Shown here piece by piece: positions 4,878 through 17,226 of a stretch of DNA of 32,000 nt. The first letter of the stretch is position 1. Each line of letters begins with the position of its first letter. The DNA lies in contig DATKZR010000138.1 of the NCBI GenBank assembly GCA_035527875.1, positions 1,528 to 33,527 on the forward strand, in the 5' to 3' direction. This DNA comes from Nitrosopumilaceae archaeon (GTDB taxonomy: Archaea > Thermoproteota > Nitrososphaeria > Nitrososphaerales > Nitrosopumilaceae). A program made the translations under genes and the position numbers. Under the pieces are notes generated by a model. It was not told where the DNA came from and did not search any database. It saw only the letters and a list, made by a program, of their open reading frames with translations.

Positions 4878-5204
4878 TTATTTTATTGGGCTTCCCAATG
4901 GAACCTCTTCATTTACAGTTAACCAAAAGGGCTTATCATCCACATCTGCTGCAAGTAACATTGCATTAGATTCAACTCCAGCCATTTTTTTTGGCTCGAG
5001 ATTTGCGATAACAATCACCACTTTACCAACTAGATCCTCTGGCTGATAATATTGTGCACCACCAATAATGACATCTCGTCTATCGTTCCCCAAATCAATA
5101 ATTCCCTTTATGATTCTAGACTTTCCTGGAATTGGTTCAGTTTCAATTATTTTTGCAACACGTATATCTAATTTTGCAAAATCGTCATACGAAATGTTTG
5201 GCAT
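4878..5204 (-). CDS. tRNA-binding domain protein (CsaA/Trbp111/MetRS-C-terminal-like OB fold)
   Basis: 108 aa. The sequence FAKLDIRVAKIIETEPIPGKSRIIKGIIDLGNDRRDVIIGGAQYYQPEDLVGKVVIVIANLEPKKMAGVESNAMLLAA matches the tRNA_bind domain pattern. Confidence 0.85.
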   Translation of the reverse strand: MPNISYDDFAKLDIRVAKIIETEPIPGKSRIIKGIIDLGNDRRDVIIGGAQYYQPEDLVGKVVIVIANLEPKKMAGVESNAMLLAADVDDKPFWLTVNEEVPLGSPIK

Positions 5205-5245
5205 AAAAATTCCTTAATTTCCTTGTTAAAATGAATTTCGAATGG

Positions 5246-5443
5246 CTACACAAGATCTTTTTTTTGTATTCCGCTGGTCTCAATATCATATCTAAGTGGA
5301 GCAGGTAATTCTAAATATTTTTTATTAGCTAGAATTAAAATTTGATCCCCTGGAACATTTACCTTTTTTAATAATTTTCCCCGTTGGTGAGCATAAGCAT
5401 TTTTCCAAAATTCTGCTGCATCAAACGTTCCAATTTTTGTCAT
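5246..5443 (-). CDS. hypothetical small protein (65 aa)
   Basis: ATG-initiated ORF in a gene-sized gap. I recognise no family. An A/T box lies about 20-25 nt upstream. Confidence 0.4.
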   Translation of the reverse strand: MTKIGTFDAAEFWKNAYAHQRGKLLKKVNVPGDQILILANKKYLELPAPLRYDIETSGIQKKDLV

Positions 5444-5470
5444 TTGTTTTCGTAATCCATTTTATTGAAA

Positions 5471-5551
5471 GGACTGTGACGGAAGAATGGCATATGCCGT
5501 TAGAACCGGAGTTAATGTTCTGGATTTTAGGCATGATGCCCATCACAGTCT
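5471..5551 (+). other. GC-enriched structured intergenic element (possible ncRNA or paired operator sites)
   Basis: The closing stem pairs GGACTGTGACGG (5471-5482) with CCATCACAGTCT (5540-5551), with 10 Watson-Crick pairs and one terminal G-U out of 12 positions. It encloses three local hairpins/dyads: GGCATATGCC (5489-5498), AGAAC-10nt-GTTCT (5502-5521) and GGCA-TGA-TGCC (5530-5540). A T7 run follows at 5553-5559. The strand is uncertain. Confidence 0.25.
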
Positions 5552-5606
5552 ATTTTTTTACCAAGCATAATCTAATATATTTACTGCGAAAGTGGATTCT
5601 TTAGTC

Positions 5607-6023
5607 ATGGCAATAATTGAAACTTCGATTGAGATTAATGCTCCATTTGACAGGGTTTGGGAATTAGTCTCAGATATTGATAATGAGCCTAAATTTTGGA
5701 AGGGAACTAAAGAAGTTCGAAATATTTCAAAAGAAGGAAACATCATCAACCGTGAAATAATAATTGCCTTTAGAGACCAAAAATGTCAGCAAAGAGTTAC
5801 ACTTTATCCAAAAGAAAAGATCGTAGCAGTGTTTACCAAGGGAATAATCACTGGAAAAAAAACTGTAAATTTAATGTCCCAAGATAAACAAACTTTGCTG
5901 CAAGTAAATTGGGATATTAAACTCACAGGCATAATGGGAATGTTTACAGGAATGATAAAAAAGCATATCCAAAATGGTACTGATTTGGCATTGCAAAGCA
6001 TCAAAAACGAACTTGAGAAATAA
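5607..6023 (+). CDS. SRPBCC (START/polyketide cyclase-like) ligand-binding protein
   Basis: MAIIETSIEINAPFDRVWELVSDIDNEPKFWKG... is the typical SRPBCC N-terminus. I prefer ATG at 5607 over the track's GTG at 5592. The stop is 9 nt before the GT2 gene. Confidence 0.75.
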   Translation: MAIIETSIEINAPFDRVWELVSDIDNEPKFWKGTKEVRNISKEGNIINREIIIAFRDQKCQQRVTLYPKEKIVAVFTKGIITGKKTVNLMSQDKQTLLQVNWDIKLTGIMGMFTGMIKKHIQNGTDLALQSIKNELEK

Positions 6024-6032
6024 TTCATAAAT

Positions 6033-7235
6033 ATGATTATCGATATTTTTAATTTTTCCTTAACTGCAATTTTAATAGGAGTATCAGCGGCATGGATTTT
6101 TTTAATTAGGTCGATGATAAATTCATTTAGATTAACACCATACCTGGATAAATTTGAAAAAATAAAACATAATAATCCAATGGTATCAATAATTCTTCCT
6201 GCAAGAAATGAAGAAGAATTTCTTGCCCGATGTTTGGATTCATTAATTGACCAAGACTATCCAAACTATGAAGTAATAGTTGTTGATGATTCATCAGAGG
6301 ATTCAACAGGAAATATTATTTCAGAATATTCCAAACATAATTCCAAAATAACTCTTGTCACGGCAAAACCCAAACCTGACGGATGGATGGGTAAAAATTG
6401 GGCATGTATGGAAGGTTACAGAAAAGCAACGGGGGAACTGTTGTTGTTTACTGATGCAGACACAACACATGCTAGAAATGTAATTTCTTTGGCTGTATCA
6501 AATTTACTTTCTCATAATCTAGATGCTTTAACTGTAATTCCAAAATTGGTTACAATTGATTTTTGGACAAAAATAACACTTCCCATGATATCCACGTTTT
6601 TACATACAAGATTTTCAGCTATCCGAGTAAATGATCCTTCAAAGAAGACGGGGTATTTTTTTGGAAGTTTTTTCATAATTAATCAAAAAACATACGAGGC
6701 AGTAGGAACCCATGAGGGTGTAAAACAGGAAATTATTGAAGATGGAGCTCTAGGAAAAAAAGTTAAGGACTCAGGCTACAAAATGAAGATGGTCCGAGGA
6801 GATCATCTAATTAAGGCAATATGGGCACGTGATAAGAGTACTCTTTGGAATGCCCTCAAAAGGCTAATGATTCCCCTGTATCTCCAAGGCCATGGAATTG
6901 CAGTTGGCATATTTTTTGCAGTTTTATTTTTACTTTTTATGCCATTTCCCATTTTGGTGTATTCCTCAATTCTCACTTTTGAAACCGTATCAAATTCCAT
7001 GTTGTTTGTTTCCTCTTTGATTGCCTCAATATTGATCTATATTGGAGCAGTGATTGAGGTCAAAAAGGGTCTACAAATCAAATTAATTTATGCGGCTTTT
7101 GGCCCTTTGGGAAGCCTAGTAGTAGTTTTGGGATTTTTAAGTGGATTACTCCAAGCCAAGAAAGATTCTTCGGTTTCCTGGAGAGGAAGAACTTATTCTT
7201 TGAAGGACCACACCCAAAATTCTATTAGGATTTAG
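6033..7235 (+). CDS. membrane-bound family 2 glycosyltransferase
   Basis: 400 aa. An N-terminal TM helix is followed by the GT-A core VSIILPARNEEEFLARCLDSLIDQDYPNYEVIVVDDSSEDST and FTDADT (the DxD region). Several C-terminal TM helices follow. The architecture resembles lipid/carotenoid/hopanoid-type GT2 enzymes. Confidence 0.85.
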   Translation: MIIDIFNFSLTAILIGVSAAWIFLIRSMINSFRLTPYLDKFEKIKHNNPMVSIILPARNEEEFLARCLDSLIDQDYPNYEVIVVDDSSEDSTGNIISEYSKHNSKITLVTAKPKPDGWMGKNWACMEGYRKATGELLLFTDADTTHARNVISLAVSNLLSHNLDALTVIPKLVTIDFWTKITLPMISTFLHTRFSAIRVNDPSKKTGYFFGSFFIINQKTYEAVGTHEGVKQEIIEDGALGKKVKDSGYKMKMVRGDHLIKAIWARDKSTLWNALKRLMIPLYLQGHGIAVGIFFAVLFLLFMPFPILVYSSILTFETVSNSMLFVSSLIASILIYIGAVIEVKKGLQIKLIYAAFGPLGSLVVVLGFLSGLLQAKKDSSVSWRGRTYSLKDHTQNSIRI

Positions 7236-7275
7236 GAGAAATCTTTTTAGTTGTATACAAGAAATTCAAAGTCTC

Positions 7276-8418
7276 TTGGATAAATCAGGTGTTATTGTTG
7301 GAGGAATCGCTGGAGCCATAATAGTTTTAGTAGTTTTTGCAGTCATTTTTGTACCACCACCACATACAATAAAACCTGAAATTGTGGTGACCAATGGACA
7401 TGATGTTAGCACCGTTGGAGCGACAACCCCTACATATTCAAAAAACCTGTCATTAATTGAAATATTTCAAAAATCAGAAGCAGGTGTTGTAAGAGTTAAC
7501 GTTCAAAGAACCGAAGAAAACCTAATTCCAACGGGGGTGGGATCTGGTTTTGTTTTTGATAAAAAAGGTCACGTAATAACTAATGCACATGTTGTAGAGG
7601 ATGCAACAAAGGTGGCAATTACATTTCTGGATGGTAGATCATATAATGCAGAAATAATTGGTATTGACAAGTTTACAGATATTGCAGTAATCAAAGTTAA
7701 TGCAGATTTATCGTTATTGCATCCATTATCTCTTGGAGATTCTTCAAATCTTCAAGTTGGAGAACCCATAGCTGCGATTGGAAATCCATTTGGATTATCA
7801 GGCTCTATGACTTCAGGAATAGTTAGTCAATTAGGTCGACTTCTTCCTTCAGGTGCAGGGTATTCTATTCCAGATGTAATTCAAACAGATGCTGCAATAA
7901 ACCCTGGAAATTCAGGGGGACCACTACTAAACATGAGAGGTGAAATAGTTGGAATAAACACAGCGATTCAATCGGCTACAGGGGAATTCACCGGTGTAGG
8001 ATTTGCAGTACCATCACAAACCTTGGTCAAAATTATTCCAAGTTTAATACAAAACGGAGAGTACAAACATCCATGGATTGGAATTTCAGGACGAGATATT
8101 GATCCGGATTTGGCAAAAGTTTTGAACCTTAATGATGCTGTGGGGTTTTTAGTGGTAACTGTTGTTCCTGATAGTCCCGCTTCAAAAGCAGGACTGCAAG
8201 GTTCGAATAATATTGTAGAGAGAGATGGAATTCAATATACTATTGGAGGTGACATCATACTATCTGTTGATGGCGTGGAGGTCAGAAAAATATCAGATAT
8301 TTTAATTCACCTACAAAGAGGAAAATCTGTTGGTGATGAAATAGTATTGGAAATTCTAAGAGATGGAAGAACAACCAATTTCACTGTTGCTTTAGGTGAA
8401 AGGCCAAATGGCGAATAA
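7276..8418 (+). CDS. HtrA/DegP-family serine protease with PDZ domain, membrane-anchored
   Basis: 380 aa with a TTG start. After the TM anchor come the catalytic triad contexts TNAHVV, DIAVIKV and GNSGGPLLN. The C-terminal PDZ region is GFLVVTVVPDSPASKAGLQ...GDIILSVDG. Confidence 0.9.
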   Translation: MDKSGVIVGGIAGAIIVLVVFAVIFVPPPHTIKPEIVVTNGHDVSTVGATTPTYSKNLSLIEIFQKSEAGVVRVNVQRTEENLIPTGVGSGFVFDKKGHVITNAHVVEDATKVAITFLDGRSYNAEIIGIDKFTDIAVIKVNADLSLLHPLSLGDSSNLQVGEPIAAIGNPFGLSGSMTSGIVSQLGRLLPSGAGYSIPDVIQTDAAINPGNSGGPLLNMRGEIVGINTAIQSATGEFTGVGFAVPSQTLVKIIPSLIQNGEYKHPWIGISGRDIDPDLAKVLNLNDAVGFLVVTVVPDSPASKAGLQGSNNIVERDGIQYTIGGDIILSVDGVEVRKISDILIHLQRGKSVGDEIVLEILRDGRTTNFTVALGERPNGE

Positions 8419-8459: not shown

Positions 8460-9629
8460 TTGAACAATCTTGTGTTAAACTCTGAAAGTTTGAACAACAT
8501 TCTAGAAAAAAAGGCAATTTCACATGAAGATGCTCTACAAATTTATCAAGATGCCATAATTGATTCATCTGAATTGATTTTAACTGCACAAAATCTTAGA
8601 AAAAAATTCAAAGGCAATACTGTAACATTTTCAAAAAAAGCGTTTTTTAATATTATTAACATGTGCAAAGATACCTGTAGCTACTGTACTTACAAATCTG
8701 AGCCAGGAGAAGGAAAACTATCCTTAATGTCAAAACAAGAGATAAAGCAAATGCTAAAGCTTGCCAAAAAACATAGATGTGTTGAAGCATTATTTGTAAC
8801 TGGAGAACGGCCGGAGCAAAAATATCAAGAAGCCAGAGATTGGCTAAAAATTAATGGCTTCAAGTCCACTGTAGAATATCTCATCCATGCCTCAGAATGG
8901 GCATTAGAAGAGGGACTCTTTCCTCACACAAATGCAGGAAACCTCACGATTGATGAAATAAAAGAACTTCAAAAAACCAATGTTTCAATGGGATTAATGT
9001 TAGAAAATGTCAGTGAACGACTTTCACAAAAGGGGATGCCCCATTATTTGGCGGCAAGTAAAAGACCAAAGGCTAGATTAGAAGTTTTAGAGAATTCTGG
9101 AAAATTAAAAATTCCAATGACAACAGGAATCCTCGTAGGAATTGGGGAAACACCGGAGGAGATTATTGATTCTATTTTTGCAATAAAGAAACTGCATGAG
9201 AAATATGGAAATATACAAGAGGTAATCTTACAAAACTTTCAACCAAAACAAGATACAATGATGAAAAATTTTCCATCAGCACAGGAAAACTATTTCAAGA
9301 TTATTGTTTCAATATCTAGAATTATCATGCCAGATATGAATATCCAAATTCCTCCAAATCTATCACCGCAATCGTATCAAAGTTTTCTTTCTGTTGGAAT
9401 TAATGATTGGGGAGGAATATCTCCACTCACTCCTGACTATGTAAATCCCGAGTTTTCTTGGCCAGAGATAAAAAAAATAGATAAAAATTCAAAAAACGCA
9501 GGATTTGATTTAAAATGTAGATTCCCAATATATCCAGAATTTTTCTCATTTATTAGTAAAGAGTTAAGAGATAAGATGTCAGCCATTGTAGATGAAGAAG
9601 GTTTGGTAAAGGAGGAATATTGGAGATGA
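8460..9629 (+). CDS. cofG: FO (7,8-didemethyl-8-hydroxy-5-deazariboflavin) synthase subunit CofG, radical SAM
   Basis: 389 aa with radical-SAM cluster motif CKDTCSYCTY. It is paired with and overlaps the cofH-like gene. The MqnC/MqnE paralogues are the alternative assignment. Confidence 0.8.
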   Translation: MNNLVLNSESLNNILEKKAISHEDALQIYQDAIIDSSELILTAQNLRKKFKGNTVTFSKKAFFNIINMCKDTCSYCTYKSEPGEGKLSLMSKQEIKQMLKLAKKHRCVEALFVTGERPEQKYQEARDWLKINGFKSTVEYLIHASEWALEEGLFPHTNAGNLTIDEIKELQKTNVSMGLMLENVSERLSQKGMPHYLAASKRPKARLEVLENSGKLKIPMTTGILVGIGETPEEIIDSIFAIKKLHEKYGNIQEVILQNFQPKQDTMMKNFPSAQENYFKIIVSISRIIMPDMNIQIPPNLSPQSYQSFLSVGINDWGGISPLTPDYVNPEFSWPEIKKIDKNSKNAGFDLKCRFPIYPEFFSFISKELRDKMSAIVDEEGLVKEEYWR

Positions 9630-10885
9630 GCGTAAACCTTGATTCTTTGTTTAGTAATGCAGATCCTCAAATTTCAGCCATTTTAAACAGATCTTTATCA
9701 GAAAAAGAGATATCAGCTGAACAAGGGCTCGCTCTTTACAATTCTGATGGAGCGGATTTTCATTTAGTGGGAATGGTAGCCGATGAGTTAAGAAGAAGAA
9801 GAGTGGGAAATATTGTAACATATGTGGTTAATAGAAATATCAACTTTACAAATGTCTGCATAAAGCAATGTGGATTTTGTGCATTTAGTAGGGATTTCAG
9901 AGAAGAAGAAGGATATTTTCTCCCTACTGAGGAAATTGTACGAAGAGCAAAAGAAGCATACCAATTAGGAGCAACCGAAGTATGCATTCAAGCAGGGCTT
10001 CCCCCTGACATGGAAGGAGACTTGTATGAGAACATTTGTAGAGCAATAAAAAAAGAGATTCCAGATATTCACATTCATGGCTTTTCTCCCGAAGAAGTTC
10101 TTTACGGGGCAACAAGATCAAAGGTCTCCATCAAAGAGTATCTAATGAGATTAAAGGAGGCAGGGGTAAACACCCTACCTGGTACGGCAGCTGAGATTTT
10201 GGATCAGAAGTTGCGTGATAAAATATCCCCTGGGAGAATTAGTGTAAAGGATTGGATTGAGGTTATCAAAACAGCACATAAAATTGGAATTAATACCACC
10301 TCAACTATGATGTTTGGCCACATTGAAACTGCCAAAGATAGAGTTGATCACATGGCAAAGATTAGGGAAATACAAAAAGAAACAGGAGGATTTACAGAGT
10401 TTGTTCCTCTTGATTTTATTCATAGCGAAGCCCCAATGTACAAACATCAATTACACGAAGAAATTAGACAAGGCGGAAGTGGTAAAGAGGTCCTTTTGAC
10501 TCATGCCATTGCCAGAATTATGTTAAACAACTACATTGACAATATTCAAATGTCATGGGTAAAAGAAGGTCAGAAAATGTCGCAACTTTTGTTAATGTGG
10601 GGAGCAAATGATTTTGGAGGGACTTTAATTAATGAAAGTATTTCAACATCCGCCGGTTCTGAACACGGCCAATTATTAAAACCAAAAGAAATCAAACGAA
10701 CAGTAAGAGAGATTGGAAGAATTCCAGCAGAAAGAAATACCAATTATAAAATTTTAAAAAGATTTGAAAATTCAAATGATTCAGAAGAGGAGTTAGACAA
10801 AATTGAAGATATCTCTAAATTTGGATCATATATGGAATTAGTCAAGATAGACAAATACAAATATCAAAATCCAAGAGAAAAATAA
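9626..10885 (+). CDS. cofH: FO synthase subunit CofH, radical SAM
   Basis: It carries NFTNVCIKQCGFCAF. ATG at 9626 overlaps the cofG TGA (ATGA overlap); the track's TTG at 9620 is the alternative start. Confidence 0.8.
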   Translation: MSVNLDSLFSNADPQISAILNRSLSEKEISAEQGLALYNSDGADFHLVGMVADELRRRRVGNIVTYVVNRNINFTNVCIKQCGFCAFSRDFREEEGYFLPTEEIVRRAKEAYQLGATEVCIQAGLPPDMEGDLYENICRAIKKEIPDIHIHGFSPEEVLYGATRSKVSIKEYLMRLKEAGVNTLPGTAAEILDQKLRDKISPGRISVKDWIEVIKTAHKIGINTTSTMMFGHIETAKDRVDHMAKIREIQKETGGFTEFVPLDFIHSEAPMYKHQLHEEIRQGGSGKEVLLTHAIARIMLNNYIDNIQMSWVKEGQKMSQLLLMWGANDFGGTLINESISTSAGSEHGQLLKPKEIKRTVREIGRIPAERNTNYKILKRFENSNDSEEELDKIEDISKFGSYMELVKIDKYKYQNPREK

Positions 10886-12247
10886 TTGTCTGCCTTAGAT
10901 GAGGCGTTAGATCATTCCAAGAAATTACATATTGATGAATGTGAGATAGTACATGTTAAACGAAAGATCATAACCGTAAGAATTACAGATTCGGAAATTT
11001 TTGAGGTAAAACGTGTTTTAGATGAAAACTATGGAATTAGAATTATTCATGATAAAAAAATATCATCAATCCAAACAAGTAATGATAAAGAAATTGTAAA
11101 ATCCATTGAAGATGCCCTTCAAACAATATCTCATCTAAAACCAAGAAAATTTTGGAAAACTCTTCCACACGAAATAAAATCGCAAACTAGTCTTCAAGGA
11201 GTTTACGATAAAAAATTAGATGAGATTTTGGGAGTAGATATAACTGATATCGCACAAAATATGATAAATTATACATTAGATCCTAAAATCAACACGATAT
11301 CAGGATCAGTAAATATAGTCTCTGAAGTCTTTAAAATTGCAAACTCCAATGGTCTATTGGCTACAGACAAAGGAACATACGTATCAGGAATTATTAATGC
11401 TGATTCGGAGATTGGTCAATCCGAAGTTTCTGGAATAGGTCATGGATGTTGCAGAACATTAGACAAGTTTTCTGCCGAACAAATAGGAAATGATGCAAAA
11501 ACTATGTGTGTAGAATCAATTAATCCACAAAAATGTGAAAGTGGAGAATACTCAATTATTTTTGAACCATATTCTGCTGGAGAAATCCTAGCATTTGTTG
11601 CATCTTCAAATTTTAATTTTAAAACATATACAGAAAAAAAGAGTTGTTTTTCTAATAATTTTAAAGAAAAAATCGCAGTCGAAGATTTTAGTTTGGTAGA
11701 TAATCCCCATATACCCCAAGGGATTGGAACAAAACCATTTGATGATGAGGGAGTAAAAACCCAAATCAATACACTAGTGGATAAGGGATTTTTTGTTAAC
11801 ACATATCGTGATCTTTTTGATAGTTACAAAGAAGGTACAGAATCTACCGGAAATGCTTCAAGACCAGGCTCCCCTATGGGAAGAAGTGCTGAATCCATTC
11901 CAGTTTCAATGCCCCATAACATTCAGATTAAATCTGGAAGTACTTCTCAAGAAGACATGATAAAAGATACAAAACATGGATTACTTGTGGGCAGATTATG
12001 GTACACTTATGCAGTTAATACAATTAAAGGAGATTTTTCATGTACTGCAAGAAGTGGAATTAGAATAATCGAAAATGGTAAAATTAAGAGTCCTGGAAAA
12101 TCAGTACGGATTATTCATAACTTGCCAAAATTATTTCAAAACATTTCAGCTGTTGGAAATAATGAAAAAAATGTTATTCAATGGGCATCTCTTCCATCAA
12201 TTACTCCATCAATTAAAGTGGAAAAAATCCAGATAAATTCAATTTAA
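10886..12247 (+). CDS. TldD/PmbA-family (peptidase U62) metalloprotease
   Basis: 453 aa. The N-terminal and C-terminal regions (GIRIIHDKKISS..., GNASR..., HGLLVGRLWYTYAVN...GDFSCTARSG) are typical of PmbA_TldD. The TTG start directly abuts the cofH TAA with a 0-nt gap. Confidence 0.85.
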   Translation: MSALDEALDHSKKLHIDECEIVHVKRKIITVRITDSEIFEVKRVLDENYGIRIIHDKKISSIQTSNDKEIVKSIEDALQTISHLKPRKFWKTLPHEIKSQTSLQGVYDKKLDEILGVDITDIAQNMINYTLDPKINTISGSVNIVSEVFKIANSNGLLATDKGTYVSGIINADSEIGQSEVSGIGHGCCRTLDKFSAEQIGNDAKTMCVESINPQKCESGEYSIIFEPYSAGEILAFVASSNFNFKTYTEKKSCFSNNFKEKIAVEDFSLVDNPHIPQGIGTKPFDDEGVKTQINTLVDKGFFVNTYRDLFDSYKEGTESTGNASRPGSPMGRSAESIPVSMPHNIQIKSGSTSQEDMIKDTKHGLLVGRLWYTYAVNTIKGDFSCTARSGIRIIENGKIKSPGKSVRIIHNLPKLFQNISAVGNNEKNVIQWASLPSITPSIKVEKIQINSI

Positions 12248-13395: not shown

Positions 13396-13899
13396 TTATC
13401 GACAAAGAGTAAAAAGGCAGTCCCCCCGCTTTGTGCGTAAATTTTCCAGAGAGACTATCGTAGAACGATGGTATGATTTGTTGGACAAAAAATCTATTTT
13501 GAAATTATTTTTTGGGGTTGAATATTGTAATGCACCTGTTTCATAAATTCCGTCTAAACTATTAGGAAATGGATATTCTGCAAAGTCACTTTGTACCAAT
13601 TCAACATTATTCCATCCGTTTTCAACTGCTCGTTTTCTTGCTTGATCAAGCATTTTATCAGTAATGTCAACTCCGATTAGTTTACCCTCTGGCCCGATTA
13701 TATCTAAAACTAGAGGAAAATTTAATCCAGTCCCACAACCAAGCTCCACACCAGTATCGCCCTTTGACAGTTCTAATGCATTGACTGTCATTTTTCGATA
13801 TTTTCCAATTTTAAGGCCTAGCAGACGGTAAAACTTTACGGCTAGATCATAATTTTCTGCATATTTTCTGTAAGCTACAGCAACTTTGTTTTCACTCAT
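13396..13899 (-). CDS. class I SAM-dependent methyltransferase, C-terminus possibly truncated by a frameshift
   Basis: Motif I is VELGCGTGLNF, followed by LIGVDITDKMLDQARKR and VELVQSDFAEYPF. The ORF ends only 8 codons after a C6 run (13422-13427). See the corresponding finding. Confidence 0.8.
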   Translation of the reverse strand: MSENKVAVAYRKYAENYDLAVKFYRLLGLKIGKYRKMTVNALELSKGDTGVELGCGTGLNFPLVLDIIGPEGKLIGVDITDKMLDQARKRAVENGWNNVELVQSDFAEYPFPNSLDGIYETGALQYSTPKNNFKIDFLSNKSYHRSTIVSLENLRTKRGDCLFTLCR

Positions 13900-13978: not shown

Positions 13979-14203
13979 TTATGTTTTCAACTTTTCAGCT
14001 AGTTCTTGTTTTTTTGGAACTCCTGTAAATTCTAACTTTTCATTTATCACAATACCTGGTGCTGTGTATATTGGATATTTTTCTAAATATTCTGGCTTTT
14101 CAGTTACATCAATTACTTGATAAGGTATTTTCATTTCATCAAGCATTTTTTCAACAACGCTACAGTTTGAACAACCTGGAGTTGTAAGAATCTCCACTTT
14201 CAT
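13979..14203 (-). CDS. small thioredoxin-fold (glutaredoxin-like, CxxC) protein
   Basis: MKVEILTTPGCSNCSVVEKMLDEMKIPYQVIDVTEKPEYLEKYPIYTAPGIVINEKLEFTGVPKKQELAEKLKT is 74 aa with active site CSNC and a cis-Pro context (APG). The start is trimmed to ATG at 14203. The upstream 43 codons of the track ORF overlap the YHS ORF in another frame. Confidence 0.8.
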   Translation of the reverse strand: MKVEILTTPGCSNCSVVEKMLDEMKIPYQVIDVTEKPEYLEKYPIYTAPGIVINEKLEFTGVPKKQELAEKLKT

Positions 14204-14366
14204 GATTCTTTTTTTATAAATGACTCTGGATCTGTCTGAAAAGCCCATTGGCATGTAGGACTGCAAAAATGGTATGTCGCCCCTTCGTGTTCCAATTTTG
14301 CGGATTTGGTTGCATCTATTTCCATACCGCAAACAAGATCCTTTACCAGTTCTGTTTCCCCCTCAT
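14200..14366 (-). CDS. YHS-domain small metal-binding protein; start disrupted (needs +1 G in a G5 run)
   Basis: Not in the ORF track. In the frame with codon first positions divisible by 3, 14340-14200 reads DLVCGMEIDATKSAKLEHEGATYHFCSPTCQWAFQTDPESFIKKES*. This is a full YHS/TRASH-type pattern (D.VCGM...G.tY.FCS..C...F..dPe.F). Its TGA overlaps the ATG of the Trx-fold gene (ATGA). The open frame reaches back to 14373 with no ATG/GTG/TTG. An ATG at 14366 is out of frame by one nt across GGGGG (14358-14362). Confidence 0.6.
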
Positions 14367-14368
14367 GC

Positions 14369-15463
14369 TTATTCTACCTTCAACTTGCCCCATTCAGTAA
14401 CAGCATGATTCCCTGCAGTTTCTCCTTGACCTCCATCCCAAATAGCAAATCCGATTTTGTATTCATTTCCAACTGAAAATTGCTTATCTATCATTCCAAA
14501 TCCTGCCACTTCAATATCTTCAGTAACAAGTAATCTTGAAACCTCAACAATCCATTCTCCTGCATCCGAATCATAAACACCTGCTGCAGTAAGGTCATTG
14601 TTTCCTCCCTGATTGTTGTCATCATCTCTGTAATAGTGATCCTTTAGCTGCTCAAATGGTCCTGCAAATTCATCATCTATTACATTAGGTGATTCTGTGT
14701 GGCTATCAAATGCCTTCCAGTGCCAAATATCTACAATACCTTCCCCTATGGTTCTTTGAGGGACTGTGACATGTGGAACTCCAGCTGCACCCATCGCAAT
14801 ATCAGAGTTTCCAGAAATATCAAAACCAAAAGCAATTCTGTCTGTTTCAGTTTTTCCCTCATTATTTGCATCATCATCTTGCCAACGGAGCAAGAAATAG
14901 ATCTTCTCTCCATCGTTTAATGACTTAGCTATTACCTGACGATTTTCATGAACATACACTGTTGAAAATATTACTCCAGCAACATCATTCCATTTATCAT
15001 CAATTATTCCATCAACTATAATTCCTCCATCTGATTTAGCTGAAGGTAAAATGGTTGTATCAGGTTCTAACTCCTGTGGATCTTTTACTACTAGAAATCC
15101 ATGTTGTTCATCGTGTCCTGCACCGCAAGGGACTGAACAATAATAATGAAATACTCCAGGTTTGTCAGCAACAAACTCCATCTCTGTCATCTGTCCTGGT
15201 AAAACTGGTTCGTTAATTTGATATTCATCAATGGCAATCCCATGAGGTACATCAGCTGTTGCAAGATTGAGAGTTACATGGTCTCCTTGGTTAACCTCGA
15301 TAAATTGTGGCTCAAATCCCCACTGAAAAGCAACAATATCAAAACTCTTGTCTTCCCCTGATGTTGTACCCATTGGAGTATAGTTCATCATAATATACCC
15401 AATTACAATAACTGCCACTACGCCACCAAGTACGATAGAATTTATTGCTTTTTTACTTGCCAT
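14369..15463 (-). CDS. membrane-anchored fusion protein: COX2/CuA-like cupredoxin domain + EB_dh (ethylbenzene-dehydrogenase-gamma/DOMON-like haem b) domain
   Basis: 364 aa with an N-terminal TM helix. The cupredoxin part is AFQWGFEPQFIEVNQGDHVTLNLATADVPHGIAIDEY...PGVFHYYCSVPCGAGHDEQHGFLVV, i.e. H...C-x3-C-x3-H as in CuA. The C-terminal part is DGIIDDKWNDV...AKSLNDGEKIYFLLRWQDDD...DRIAFGFDI...AMG...VDIWHWKA, which matches EB_dh family hallmarks. Confidence 0.8.
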   Translation of the reverse strand: MASKKAINSIVLGGVVAVIVIGYIMMNYTPMGTTSGEDKSFDIVAFQWGFEPQFIEVNQGDHVTLNLATADVPHGIAIDEYQINEPVLPGQMTEMEFVADKPGVFHYYCSVPCGAGHDEQHGFLVVKDPQELEPDTTILPSAKSDGGIIVDGIIDDKWNDVAGVIFSTVYVHENRQVIAKSLNDGEKIYFLLRWQDDDANNEGKTETDRIAFGFDISGNSDIAMGAAGVPHVTVPQRTIGEGIVDIWHWKAFDSHTESPNVIDDEFAGPFEQLKDHYYRDDDNNQGGNNDLTAAGVYDSDAGEWIVEVSRLLVTEDIEVAGFGMIDKQFSVGNEYKIGFAIWDGGQGETAGNHAVTEWGKLKVE

Positions 15464-16421
15464 ATTTTTCCTTCACCACATATCCTATAGCAGGTATTGC
15501 TATTAACAATACCAACATGGTCCATGGAATTGGCATGATGACATGTGCCCCCATTGTCATCTCTGGCTCTATTCCAAATAATGGCATTACTTCATTCCAT
15601 GCAAGATGAAATGGTGAACGTTCCCACCAAGGATGTCCAAAAAGTCCTAGTAAAAGAATGAATGCACCAATAGCTAACAATCCAAAACCTGTTGCTTTTT
15701 CAACTGCAACTCTTTTCTTTACCAGAGTTTGTGTTGCACTAATTCCAAGTATTGCCAATATTGCAATAAATATCAAAGGAACTGCTCGTCCAATACCGTG
15801 AATTAACCCCAGTGAACCGCCTACGACAACACTACCAGTGCCTATGATGTATGTTAACATAAAATAAAAGAATGGATTCGGGCAACCCACACCTGCATTA
15901 CCCAAAAGCAGCCCCATGAGAAGTGGTTTTAGTTTGTCGCCACGTTTTTCTATGAATTTTGGAGTACCAGCATAAGATGGCAATTTTAGATTTAGTAATT
16001 TTAATTCAGACAAACCAAATGTGAATGCTATAGATCCTGCAAAAAACCACATAACTCGTGTTGCTTGGTCTATTCCTGTATACTGTCCAAGCAATGCAAC
16101 TGCTATACCATAAGTAGTGATTGTGATGACTAGTCCTATTCCAAAAAGAACCGCTATACCTAATCCCTTTTTGTATCCTTTTCCCATGCATAGTGGAACT
16201 ATAATGAATACCATGGGCAAGGTACATGGTAGAATTATCATTGAAAGACCTGCAGCATATGCTATTAGCAACCATGAAGCATATGGCGTAGATCCTACTT
16301 CTTCTTCAACAAGTTCGACTGTAGAAAGATAAAGTATTCCGATAATAAATGCAGAAAGCAGAGCAAACAGTAACAGTATCAAAACATTTTTTCCTTTGCT
16401 AGTTGCTACGTCTTGAGTCAT
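15453..16421 (-). CDS. CcdA/DsbD-family transmembrane thiol:disulfide electron transporter-like protein
   Basis: 322 aa, polytopic. Two intramembrane Cys-Pro motifs are present: LPCTLPMV and GVGCPNPFF. It overlaps the downstream cupredoxin gene by 11 nt. Confidence 0.7.
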   Translation of the reverse strand: MTQDVATSKGKNVLILLLFALLSAFIIGILYLSTVELVEEEVGSTPYASWLLIAYAAGLSMIILPCTLPMVFIIVPLCMGKGYKKGLGIAVLFGIGLVITITTYGIAVALLGQYTGIDQATRVMWFFAGSIAFTFGLSELKLLNLKLPSYAGTPKFIEKRGDKLKPLLMGLLLGNAGVGCPNPFFYFMLTYIIGTGSVVVGGSLGLIHGIGRAVPLIFIAILAILGISATQTLVKKRVAVEKATGFGLLAIGAFILLLGLFGHPWWERSPFHLAWNEVMPLFGIEPEMTMGAHVIMPIPWTMLVLLIAIPAIGYVVKEKYGK

Positions 16422-16493: not shown

Positions 16494-16515
16494 ATTATCA
16501 TACGTGATTATCATA
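16494..16515. promoter_or_regulatory. direct repeat ATTATCATA x2 in the divergent promoter region
   Basis: ATTATCATA occurs at 16494-16502 and again at 16507-16515 (13-nt period). This is just upstream of TATAAAA (16535-16541), which sits 23-29 nt before the Met-rich gene ATG. Confidence 0.25.
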
Positions 16516-16563: not shown

Positions 16564-16827
16564 ATGGACAAAACAATTTTGGTAGCAGTATCGATTATAG
16601 TATTTTTTGTTGGATTTGGAGTAGGTTCTGTAGTGTTTTACAATCAACCAAATATGCCCATCTTAGGTCATGGAATGACAGGTCCTATGTATAGCCCAGA
16701 AATCATGAATCAGATGATGGACGATCCACAGTTACAAGAACAAATGATAGATACTATGATGAAAAACCCGCAATTTATGAACAATCTAATGCAACACCAA
16801 GACTTTATGAAGCGGATAAATCCATAA
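16564..16827 (+). CDS. Met-rich exported/anchored small protein, putative Cu(I)-binding
   Basis: 87 aa with an N-terminal TM/signal anchor (ILVAVSIIVFFVGFGVGSVVF). The tail contains 12 Met by my count, in repeated M-x2-3-M and NPQ(F/L)M-like units: GHGMTGPMYSPEIMNQMMDDPQLQEQMIDTMMKNPQFMNNLMQHQDFM. Confidence 0.6.
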   Translation: MDKTILVAVSIIVFFVGFGVGSVVFYNQPNMPILGHGMTGPMYSPEIMNQMMDDPQLQEQMIDTMMKNPQFMNNLMQHQDFMKRINP

Positions 16828-16839
16828 ACGGATACTAAA

Positions 16840-17226
16840 TTGACCTTTAATTATACTGTAAAAACCCAAAAAAACATAGATAAAGTAATTGAGGAAATTA
16901 CATCAAAACTTTCAGAAATAAAATTTGGTGTTCTTGGAACCTTGGATTTCAAGGAAATTTTTGCAAAAAAAGGAATTGATTATCCACATGAATACAAATT
17001 ATTAGAAGTTTGTAACCCACAAGCCGCAAAACAGGCACTTGATTCTGATCCAAACATTGGATTATTACTTCCATGTACAATTGCAGTGTATGAAAAAGAT
17101 GATCAAAATTTTATCAGCTTGGCAAAACCTACAACGTTACTTGCTGTTGCATCAAACACAGCGTTAGAATCTATGGGAAAAGAAATTGAAGCAAAACTAA
17201 TTGAAGTAATTGATAATTCAAAATAA
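16840..17226 (+). CDS. DUF302 domain protein
   Basis: 128 aa with a TTG start. LEVCNPQAAKQALDSDPNIGLLLPCTIAVYEKDD is the characteristic DUF302 core. Confidence 0.85.
   Translation: MTFNYTVKTQKNIDKVIEEITSKLSEIKFGVLGTLDFKEIFAKKGIDYPHEYKLLEVCNPQAAKQALDSDPNIGLLLPCTIAVYEKDDQNFISLAKPTTLLAVASNTALESMGKEIEAKLIEVIDNSK

Follow-up and report, generated by a model that had tools for sequence, protein, structure and literature searches.

What kind of protein is encoded at 14369..15463 on the minus strand of a 32,000-nt stretch of DNA (the window) from a Nitrosopumilaceae archaeon, and what would it do for the cell? A first-pass annotation, made from the sequence alone, had read this gene as a CuA-like cupredoxin fused to an EB_dh haem-b domain. 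We compared the gene and its surroundings with related loci and proteins fetched for the purpose (L and P numbers). The sequence evidence supports a single membrane-anchored, outward-facing polypeptide that joins a CuA-type cupredoxin to an EB_dh domain. Both families are well known; joined in this way they make a domain architecture that is new and that shows two naturally occurring ligand substitutions.

A CuA-type cupredoxin joined to an EB_dh domain

The gene has an ATG start and encodes 364 aa, and the motifs quoted in the first-pass annotation are all present in this open reading frame (ORF). When scanned against Pfam with hmmscan, the protein scores above the gathering cut-offs of EB_dh (PF09459; E=1.4e-21, 78 bits, cut-off 33.3, residues 173-353), Cupredoxin_1 (E=2e-7, 31.4 bits, cut-off 27) and COX2 (PF00116; E=9.1e-7, 29.3 bits, cut-off 22, residues 59-118), which bears out the proposed fusion. 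The NCBIfam models matched partially: the CuA end of Sec-dependent NosZ at 1.9e-18, CoxB at 8.6e-12 and the type II haem-b subunit of dimethyl sulfoxide (DMSO) reductase at 5.3e-14. These scores lie far below the full-length cut-offs, as expected since single domains are matched. NosZ models cover the fusion with their last ~85-90 positions only (66 and 49.5 bits vs a cut-off of 625), and DMSO_red_II_gam reaches 52 bits, far under its cut-off of 169.85. A match to CbsA is faint (E=0.02, far below cut-off).

The cupredoxin domain spans aa 39-128 (15080..15349, minus strand, as are all coordinates within the fusion gene) and the EB_dh domain, which is DOMON-like, aa 151-364 (14372..15013). A fast-evolving linker of aa 129-150 (15014..15079) lies between them. 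The protein begins with a membrane anchor at aa 4-27 (15383..15454): the hydrophobic segment covers residues 3-29 by Kyte-Doolittle analysis, and predicted structures place a helix at 4-26. Since two lysines are followed by a 24-residue hydrophobic helix, the protein is predicted to be N-in/C-out with both domains facing outward, in line with the membrane-anchored, extracellular placement first proposed.

We then considered the usual partners of such domains. The scan covered 27 window ORFs, namely those of the gene cluster and the majority of the ORFs with 90 aa or more. Neither these nor the syntenic loci contained a haem-copper oxidase subunit I, so the statement that the gene adjoins no oxidase subunit I is correct. 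Molybdoenzyme alpha or beta subunits were found neither among these ORFs nor in related loci. A NosZ catalytic domain or nos genes were likewise not found among the 27 ORFs, nor a NosZ catalytic domain as CuA partner in the syntenic loci.

Glutamine at the axial position of the predicted copper site

The top sequence match of the fusion in the PDB is the CuA domain of Thermus ba3 (phmmer, E=6e-15). The alignment is gap-free, with DVPHG of the fusion falling on DVIHG and CSVPCGAGHDEQ on CNQYCGLGHQNM. Candidate ligands His74 (15242-15244), Cys109, Cys113 and His117 align with His114, Cys149, Cys153 and His157 of ba3, which, together with Met160, are the ba3 CuA ligands in their published numbering. 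The four residues are thus kept in C-x3-C-x3-H spacing, as had been noted by eye. The candidate copper loop, C109-x3-C113-x3-H117-x2-Q120 (15104-15139), reads C-S-V-P-C-G-A-G-H-D-E-Q in the fusion vs C-N-Q-Y-C-G-L-G-H-Q-N-M in ba3. Gln120 therefore stands at axial Met160, and the axial methionine that marks the CuA family is absent.

This exchange is a property of the family. His74, Cys109, Cys113, His117 and Gln120 are invariant across 19 aligned members, and ligand conservation holds in sequences down to 56% identity. In a regular-expression count over all hits, C-x3-C-x3-H-x2-Q occurs in 25/25 fusion-family members and C-x3-C-x3-H-x2-M in all 44 non-fusion CuA relatives. Glutamine is also present in L021, a more divergent fusion member with 54% identity. 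The first-pass annotation had pointed to the Met-to-Gln change and to an extra histidine next to it; the former is real, and the latter, His121, is not conserved and is glycine in most members.

Structure prediction agrees with the assignment. A model built from the family alignment is confident for the cupredoxin domain and good for that domain only; it matches 2cua_A with TMt 0.71 (Foldseek). Like subunit II of ba3 (Thermus thermophilus, 2CUA/1EHK), the fusion has one N-terminal membrane helix followed by a cupredoxin with His, C-x3-C-x3-H and the same axial spacing. Unlike it, the fusion has Gln for Met160, lacks a subunit I gene nearby and carries a C-terminal haem part of 235 aa. We also compared the domain with COX2 and NosZ by scores and identities. 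Clade II (Sec-dependent) NosZ CuA domains show the highest identity to the fusion of any outside family, 37-53% over ~95 aa; unlike NosZ, the fusion is without a CuZ beta-propeller and nos accessory genes, and it has Gln rather than Met. The closest Met-type relative that stands alone, P0029, is encoded in bacterial-like surroundings with no subunit I, and this gives no clue to how the fusion arose.

From sequence and model, we infer that the fusion binds copper. The first centre would be binuclear CuA-type copper with His74, Cys109, Cys113 and His117 as ligands, in which the weak axial Met of CuA would be permanently exchanged for Gln120. An oxygen or nitrogen donor in place of a thioether sulfur would tune the copper potential. 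Engineered Met-to-Gln variants of Thermus CuA are reported to stay binuclear. To our knowledge, non-Met axial ligands in CuA sites are known from engineered proteins only.

Candidate haem ligands in the EB_dh domain

The candidate haem axial ligands are Met224 (14792-14794), His231 (14771-14773) and His353 (14405-14407). Among the 19 aligned members, Met224 and His231 are invariant, and His248, Lys336 and His353 are present in every full-length member. We aligned 34 EB_dh relatives with three family members. Met224 belongs to the x-M-G column, in which 23 of the 37 sequences have the Met and 33 the Gly; this is the column of the haem ligand Met108 of EbdC, and the suggestion that a methionine in an MG context supplies the haem ligand is thereby supported. 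His353 falls in a column with Lys in 25 and His in six of the 37. In a pairwise HMMER alignment, His353 is paired with Lys201 of EbdC, its second haem ligand, so that the canonical Lys is absent from the fusion; this pairwise alignment is poor around the Met224 loop. The motifs WHWKA, FAxWDG and GE..G of haem-binding relatives are kept. As Met224 and His353 occupy both haem-ligand columns, Met/His ligation by these two residues, rather than Met/Lys, is most likely from the sequence.

A second model, built from a broader alignment, is good for the EB_dh core only, where it is confident (pLDDT >90). In Foldseek it matches NxrC (7b04_C, E=1.5e-10) and EbdC (2ivf_C, TMt 0.66), both ahead of CBM9. 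The structure predictions thus uphold both halves of the proposed fusion. Like the haem-b gamma subunits EbdC and NxrC, which are its best fold matches and also belong to the EB_dh family, the domain has the x-M-G methionine, WHWKA and FAxWDG. Unlike them, it has His353 for Lys, an AAGVPH insertion and no molybdoenzyme alpha or beta subunits, and it is tethered to the membrane through the fused cupredoxin, whereas EbdC and NxrC are carried in a soluble complex. The domain stands very much apart: in a full HMMER scan of 1.84 billion representatives it retrieved just three proteins below 1e-30, all of its own family, and 44 below 1e-3. Of the 37 EB_dh proteins in the alignment, none but the three family members has a fused cupredoxin; five others have a fused cytochrome c.

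The family-specific insertion AAGVP-H231 aligns with C-x3-C-H in P0074, P0075, P0083, P0093 and P0099, which makes His231 a third candidate haem ligand. The occurrence of C-x3-C-H in five distant EB_dh relatives suggests a haem-c-type EB_dh subfamily. The insertion may be a relic of a version with covalently bound haem c, and descent of the archaeal fusion family from the haem-c-type subfamily after loss of the cysteines is a possibility.

We infer haem b binding from sequence and model. The second centre would be a non-covalent haem b in an EB_dh/DOMON-like beta-sandwich, held by Met224 and His353, with His taking the place of the EbdC Lys; Met/His ligation would tune the haem potential. There are precedents for haem b on the outside of archaeal cells. 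Cytochrome b558/566 (CbsA) of Sulfolobus is an archaeal haem-b cytochrome that is N-glycosylated and hence outward-facing, and FoxC of the archaeal Fox cluster has been modelled as EbdC-like. CbsA and FoxC thus offer a precedent for EB_dh-like haem b outside the archaeal cell; they differ from the fusion in having no cupredoxin, in phylum and in physiology, and the sequence match is faint. By analogy only, the domain can be likened to the cytochrome of cellobiose dehydrogenase and to CYBDOM/DOMON proteins, which share a DOMON-superfamily sandwich, Met/His haem b and an outward-facing position. Such haem-b domains pass single electrons to a copper centre (lytic polysaccharide monooxygenase) or to metal ions. 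Unlike the fusion, these proteins are eukaryotic and their copper acceptor is a separate enzyme; they were not among the top 50 Foldseek matches of the fusion.

A rare accessory gene under purifying selection

A search of 5.8 billion clusters returned ~26 protein clusters with the fusion architecture, at 59-89% identity. The matches then fall off abruptly to NosZ and small COX2-like proteins, which match the cupredoxin part only. All source-named fusion clusters belong to Nitrosopumilaceae (Nitrosarchaeum, Nitrosopumilus, Nitrosomaritimum and a Marine Group I single cell) except one named Gammaproteobacteria. When 185,579 species, each represented by a single genome, were scanned by pattern, the full fusion turned up in eight loci. 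These are metagenome-assembled genomes (MAGs) of Nitrosopumilaceae type, bar one 2.8-kb contig labelled Gammaproteobacteria (L007). Since the neighbours on that contig are 91-96% identical to archaeal or window genes, it is probably mis-binned.

Two loci have features of their own. L005 and L009 belong to one MAG (Nitrosopumilus sp. SMAG_U87), where the fusion cluster is present twice, on separate contigs; the copies are either paralogues or a sign of mixed strains. In L008 (6001-7089) the fusion gene has an in-frame TAA where others have the Glu241 codon GAA, indicating a pseudogene or a sequencing error.

Compared with five orthologues, the ratio of nonsynonymous to synonymous substitution rates (dN/dS) of the fusion gene is 0.12-0.19, which denotes purifying selection. 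The ratio is ~0.1-0.2 for both domains, and the linker is relaxed at ~0.4-0.6.

Databases name the protein variously as "ethylbenzene dehydrogenase-related", "DMSO reductase haem b subunit", "cytochrome c oxidase subunit 2" and "nitrous-oxide reductase protein". We found no description of it in the literature searched, including the San Francisco Bay MAG paper and the Fe-oxidation paper, neither of which mentions it; the view that it is of an uncharacterised kind agrees with this. Five cultured strains are reported to have one CuA-type gene each (PMC13464753). The fusion is a rare accessory gene and no general feature of ammonia oxidisers. As it is rare and absent from cultured strains, it is not part of the core ammonia-oxidation pathway.

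The fusion gene lies in a thiol-redox and metal-binding cluster

The first-pass annotation had mentioned neither His353 at the second haem-ligand position nor the neighbouring genes, and the latter provide the most informative evidence. On the 5' side, a gene for a DsbD_TM/CcdA-like thiol-disulfide membrane transporter of 322 aa (15453..16421, minus strand) overlaps the start of the fusion gene by 11 nt. It matches DsbD_TM in Pfam (E=3.5e-9, 36.7 bits vs a cut-off of 27.1) and has two membrane cysteines, in PCTLP (C66) and GCPNP (C180). Its residues ~265-322 (15453-15630, minus strand) form a C-terminal extension past the Pfam domain, in which a His/Met-rich stretch (…HPWWERSPFHLAWNEVMPLFGIEPEMTMGAHVIMPIPW…), possibly a loop that binds Cu(I), precedes a final membrane helix.

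On the other side lies a gene for a small metal-binding protein of the YHS/TRASH type (14200..14349, minus strand; Pfam YHS 3.5e-10), which is 41 aa long if it starts at ATG 14325 and 49 aa if it starts at CTG 14347-14349. In six related loci this protein begins with MVKDLVCGM, and the start codon at the corresponding window site is CTG (Leu). A start at the internal ATG 14325 would lose the first Cys of the C-x19-22-C-x3-C metal-binding motif. The YHS stop is overlapped by 4 nt by the gene of a small cytoplasmic thioredoxin (13979..14203, minus strand; Pfam Thioredoxin_3, 3.2e-15). This protein has 74 aa, a C-S-N-C motif and no membrane segment, and it is 89-97% identical across syntenic loci.

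Transcribed divergently, at 16564..16827 on the plus strand, is a gene for a Met/Gln-rich membrane-anchored protein of 87 aa with 15% Met. It is also present in L005, L006 and L007. Two 558-aa variants of the fusion, P0023 and P0024, are longer at the N-terminus; their extension is 12-15% Met and contains 11 His and two CPxC motifs. The Met-rich protein is 53% identical to the extension of P0023 over 30 aa (BLASTP, E=5e-8). This homology to a segment of the extension gives a Rosetta-stone link between the Met-rich protein and the fusion.

With their 11-nt and 4-nt overlaps, the genes on the minus strand make up a tightly packed operon. The order DsbD_TM-fusion-YHS-thioredoxin is kept, as far as contigs reach, in every locus with the 364-aa form (L001/L004, L003, L005, L006, L007, L008 and L009, whose contig ends inside the fusion gene). 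DsbD_TM-fusion is found in seven loci and fusion-YHS-thioredoxin also in seven. The DsbD_TM proteins of fusion loci form a tight group with 82-93% identity, which roughly equals the fusion family in number. Next comes one member at 70%, itself followed by a fusion gene, and then more than 1000 thaumarchaeal paralogues at 50-58%. By its sequence, the DsbD_TM protein beside the fusion is a dedicated paralogue, distinct from the housekeeping thaumarchaeal ones.

From its wider occurrence, the DsbD_TM-YHS(-thioredoxin) cassette seems to be a widespread thaumarchaeal module. A Nitrosotenuis MAG (L019) has two fusion-less cassettes within 6 kb (5001-6127 and 9410-10889), beside universal stress protein genes and a multicopper oxidase. 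Since housekeeping cassettes occur without the fusion, the cassette is generic, with the fusion gene placed inside one paralogous copy. The idea that DsbD_TM, YHS protein and thioredoxin form a maturation system dedicated to the fusion is weakened by the Nitrosotenuis cassettes; the DsbD paralogue alone is specific.

The divergent promoter region upstream of DsbD_TM contains a direct repeat, ATGATAAT-N5-ATGATAAT (16494..16514, minus strand), that is conserved across five loci. A single copy lies in the window and in each of L003 (4947), L005 (556), L006 (625) and L008 (4950), always upstream of DsbD, and no further copy was found in the window or the fetched loci. On sequence grounds, it is a candidate operator or regulator binding site. 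A gene for a small cupredoxin joins the cluster in two loci, upstream in L001 and downstream in L008, where it encodes 209 aa and lies between the fusion and YHS genes (7154-7783). These small cupredoxins are candidate redox partners of the fusion.

Two further genes flank the cluster. A DUF302 gene (16840-17226, plus strand) begins 12 nt beyond the Met-rich gene, and the two are probably transcribed together; in a Holophagales MAG, a homologue (L011, 3895-4212) is ~2 kb away from a gene for a CuA-type cupredoxin. A literature search on a DUF302-copper link gave nothing useful, and we left DUF302 out of the model. Downstream of the thioredoxin gene is one for a UbiE/COQ5-like methyltransferase (13396-13899, minus strand), whose product has 213 aa in L003, L005 and L006. 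The window copy diverges after residue ~127 (breakpoint near 13515) and ends at 167 aa. The C-terminal remainder is in no other frame; the cluster seems to be bordered here by a deletion or rearrangement.

A proposed two-centre electron-transfer protein and its alternatives

What, then, would the fusion do? With about even confidence, we favour an extracytoplasmic, membrane-tethered protein that would transfer electrons by way of two centres and have its copper site matured by the thiol-reducing, copper-handling cassette around it. Both domains are pure electron-transfer modules in characterised relatives and no catalytic site is apparent, which suggests a two-centre electron wire. Electrons would hop between haem and copper within one polypeptide and so link a pseudo-periplasmic donor to an acceptor.

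In bacteria, TlpA is recharged by DsbD/CcdA and cytoplasmic thioredoxin. By analogy, the cytoplasmic thioredoxin of the cluster would pass reducing equivalents through DsbD_TM, and this reduction would keep the copper-bridging cysteines as a dithiol for metallation, much as TlpA and DsbD do for bacterial CoxB. Copper would be handled by the YHS protein inside the cell and by the Met-rich protein outside. No TlpA-, Sco- or PCuAC-family domain was detected in the cluster, so DsbD_TM would act directly or via an unlinked partner. As in bacterial CuA maturation (thioredoxin to DsbD/CcdA to TlpA, ScoI and PcuC), thioredoxin and DsbD_TM genes stand beside that of a CuA protein, and the Met-rich protein recalls the Met/His-rich tail of PcuC (PCuAC). 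Unlike in bacteria, TlpA, Sco and PCuAC domains are missing from the cluster and the cassette also occurs without a CuA gene in other thaumarchaea. In bacterial CuA assembly, the cysteine pair is reduced by TlpA and copper is delivered by chaperones, one of which has a Met/His-rich tail (PMC6669012). That the cassette matures the copper site of the fusion would be a parsimonious explanation of this arrangement.

Several observations weigh against the electron wire and its maturation. The haem loop, aa 224-241, has low confidence in both structure models, and three conserved residues, Met224, His231 and His353, vie for two ligand positions. No route is apparent by which haem b would reach a Sec-type anchored extracytoplasmic domain; EbdC-type subunits are thought to be exported folded. 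No catalytic or redox partner of the fusion was identified in the window, and the cluster has no extracytoplasmic thioredoxin-like protein equivalent to TlpA. The 558-aa variants P0023 and P0024 lack the DsbD_TM-YHS-thioredoxin cassette as neighbours, and the fusion-less cassettes of Nitrosotenuis (L019) count here as well.

The strongest rival, which we consider plausible but unlikely, is that the fusion is a copper-homeostasis device. It would be an extracytoplasmic cupric/ferric reductase or a Cu(I)/Cu(II) buffer that works with DsbD_TM, YHS protein, thioredoxin and Met-rich protein in copper acquisition or detoxification, and can be likened to DOMON/cytochrome-b561 metal reductases or to Scs (DsbD-like) copper-tolerance systems. 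Indeed, all the neighbours are thiol-redox or metal-binding proteins. The Met-rich partner and the Met-, His- and CPxC-rich N-terminal extension resemble Cu(I)-binding sequences, and a CDF transporter, a YHS-type P-type ATPase, a multicopper oxidase and a DtxR-type regulator are encoded near other loci. In Nitrososphaera viennensis, DsbD-family genes are among those most strongly induced under copper limitation, and the authors propose Cu(I) handling (PMC7785015); this induction fits the maturation reading as well. A CYBDOM protein (cytochrome b561 plus DOMON) is reported to affect iron homeostasis in Arabidopsis (PMC10784552). However, complete CuA ligand sets characterise electron-transfer proteins and not metal-trafficking ones, and the accessory genes are equally well explained as maturation factors. 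DsbD delivers thiol equivalents, and a source of single electrons is not evident. The gene is also too rare for a general copper-uptake route.

The C-terminal domain may instead be free of haem: a CBM9/DOMON-like carbohydrate-binding or scaffold module, docking for example on S-layer glycans, in a copper protein with a single centre. CBM9 modules are indeed strong fold matches (TMt 0.62-0.64). The missing canonical Lys ligand, the uncertain modelling of the haem loop and the absence of a known haem-export route for such a protein all fit. We nevertheless judge this improbable. Pfam calls EB_dh rather than CBM9_1, and NxrC and EbdC outrank CBM9 in Foldseek. Every full-length member keeps the x-M-G methionine and has a histidine where the Lys would be, and the motifs of haem-binding relatives are retained.

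Could the copper site be something other than CuA? It may be mononuclear (stellacyanin-like or "red/purple"), or C-x3-C may be a redox-active disulfide and a direct substrate of DsbD_TM. Axial Gln is typical of mononuclear sites of the stellacyanin type, the fusion gene is translationally coupled to the DsbD_TM gene, and nitrosocyanin and plastocyanin are weak NCBIfam matches of the fusion. But the fusion can be aligned gap-free with the CuA loops of ba3 and NosZ over the upstream His and the C-x3-C-x3-H spacing, the best family and fold matches of the cupredoxin are all CuA domains, and the engineered Thermus variants also speak for a binuclear site, so this explanation appears quite improbable.

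Finally, the fusion might be the CuA electron-entry module of an unrecognised N2O/NO-reducing system in ammonia-oxidising archaea, whose N2O-to-N2 enzyme is still unknown (PMC13464753); the NosZ CuA end as best NCBIfam partial match of the cupredoxin, the identity to Sec-dependent NosZ and the name "Nitrous-oxide reductase protein" in one single-cell genome favour this. We reject an N2O reductase, and regard any such role as very hard to credit, because the fusion lacks the CuZ domain, no nos genes were seen among the window ORFs scanned, the cultured strains that produce N2 have a single CuA-type gene each, comparative genomics gave no candidate (PMC13464753), and the fusion is absent from nearly all Nitrosopumilaceae genomes.

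Significance for ammonia-oxidising archaea

If the two-centre electron-transfer reading is taken further, a Gln-ligated CuA together with a Met/His haem b could represent a new class of low-potential, outward redox module, serving as the entry or exit of an accessory pathway in sediment, soil and estuarine Nitrosopumilaceae. The cassette and the Met-rich protein could then be the first recognised archaeal maturation system for extracytoplasmic copper-thiolate sites. We put this forward tentatively, as a proposal that is more likely wrong than right. If it is true, the accessory pathway could, for example, reduce Cu(II) or Fe(III) outside the cell or supply electrons to a periplasmic N-oxide enzyme.

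Glutamine fixed by selection would be a natural experiment on axial-ligand tuning of a binuclear copper centre. The embedding of the gene also gives a testable idea: a widespread copper-responsive cassette may maintain copper-binding cysteines outside the cytoplasm in the reduced state and provide them with copper. The electron transport of ammonia-oxidising archaea is believed to depend on copper proteins, and several key enzymes and carriers are still unidentified. A CuA-haem-b wire on the outer face of the membrane would mean that some lineages possess extra, so far uncharacterised electron-transfer hardware.

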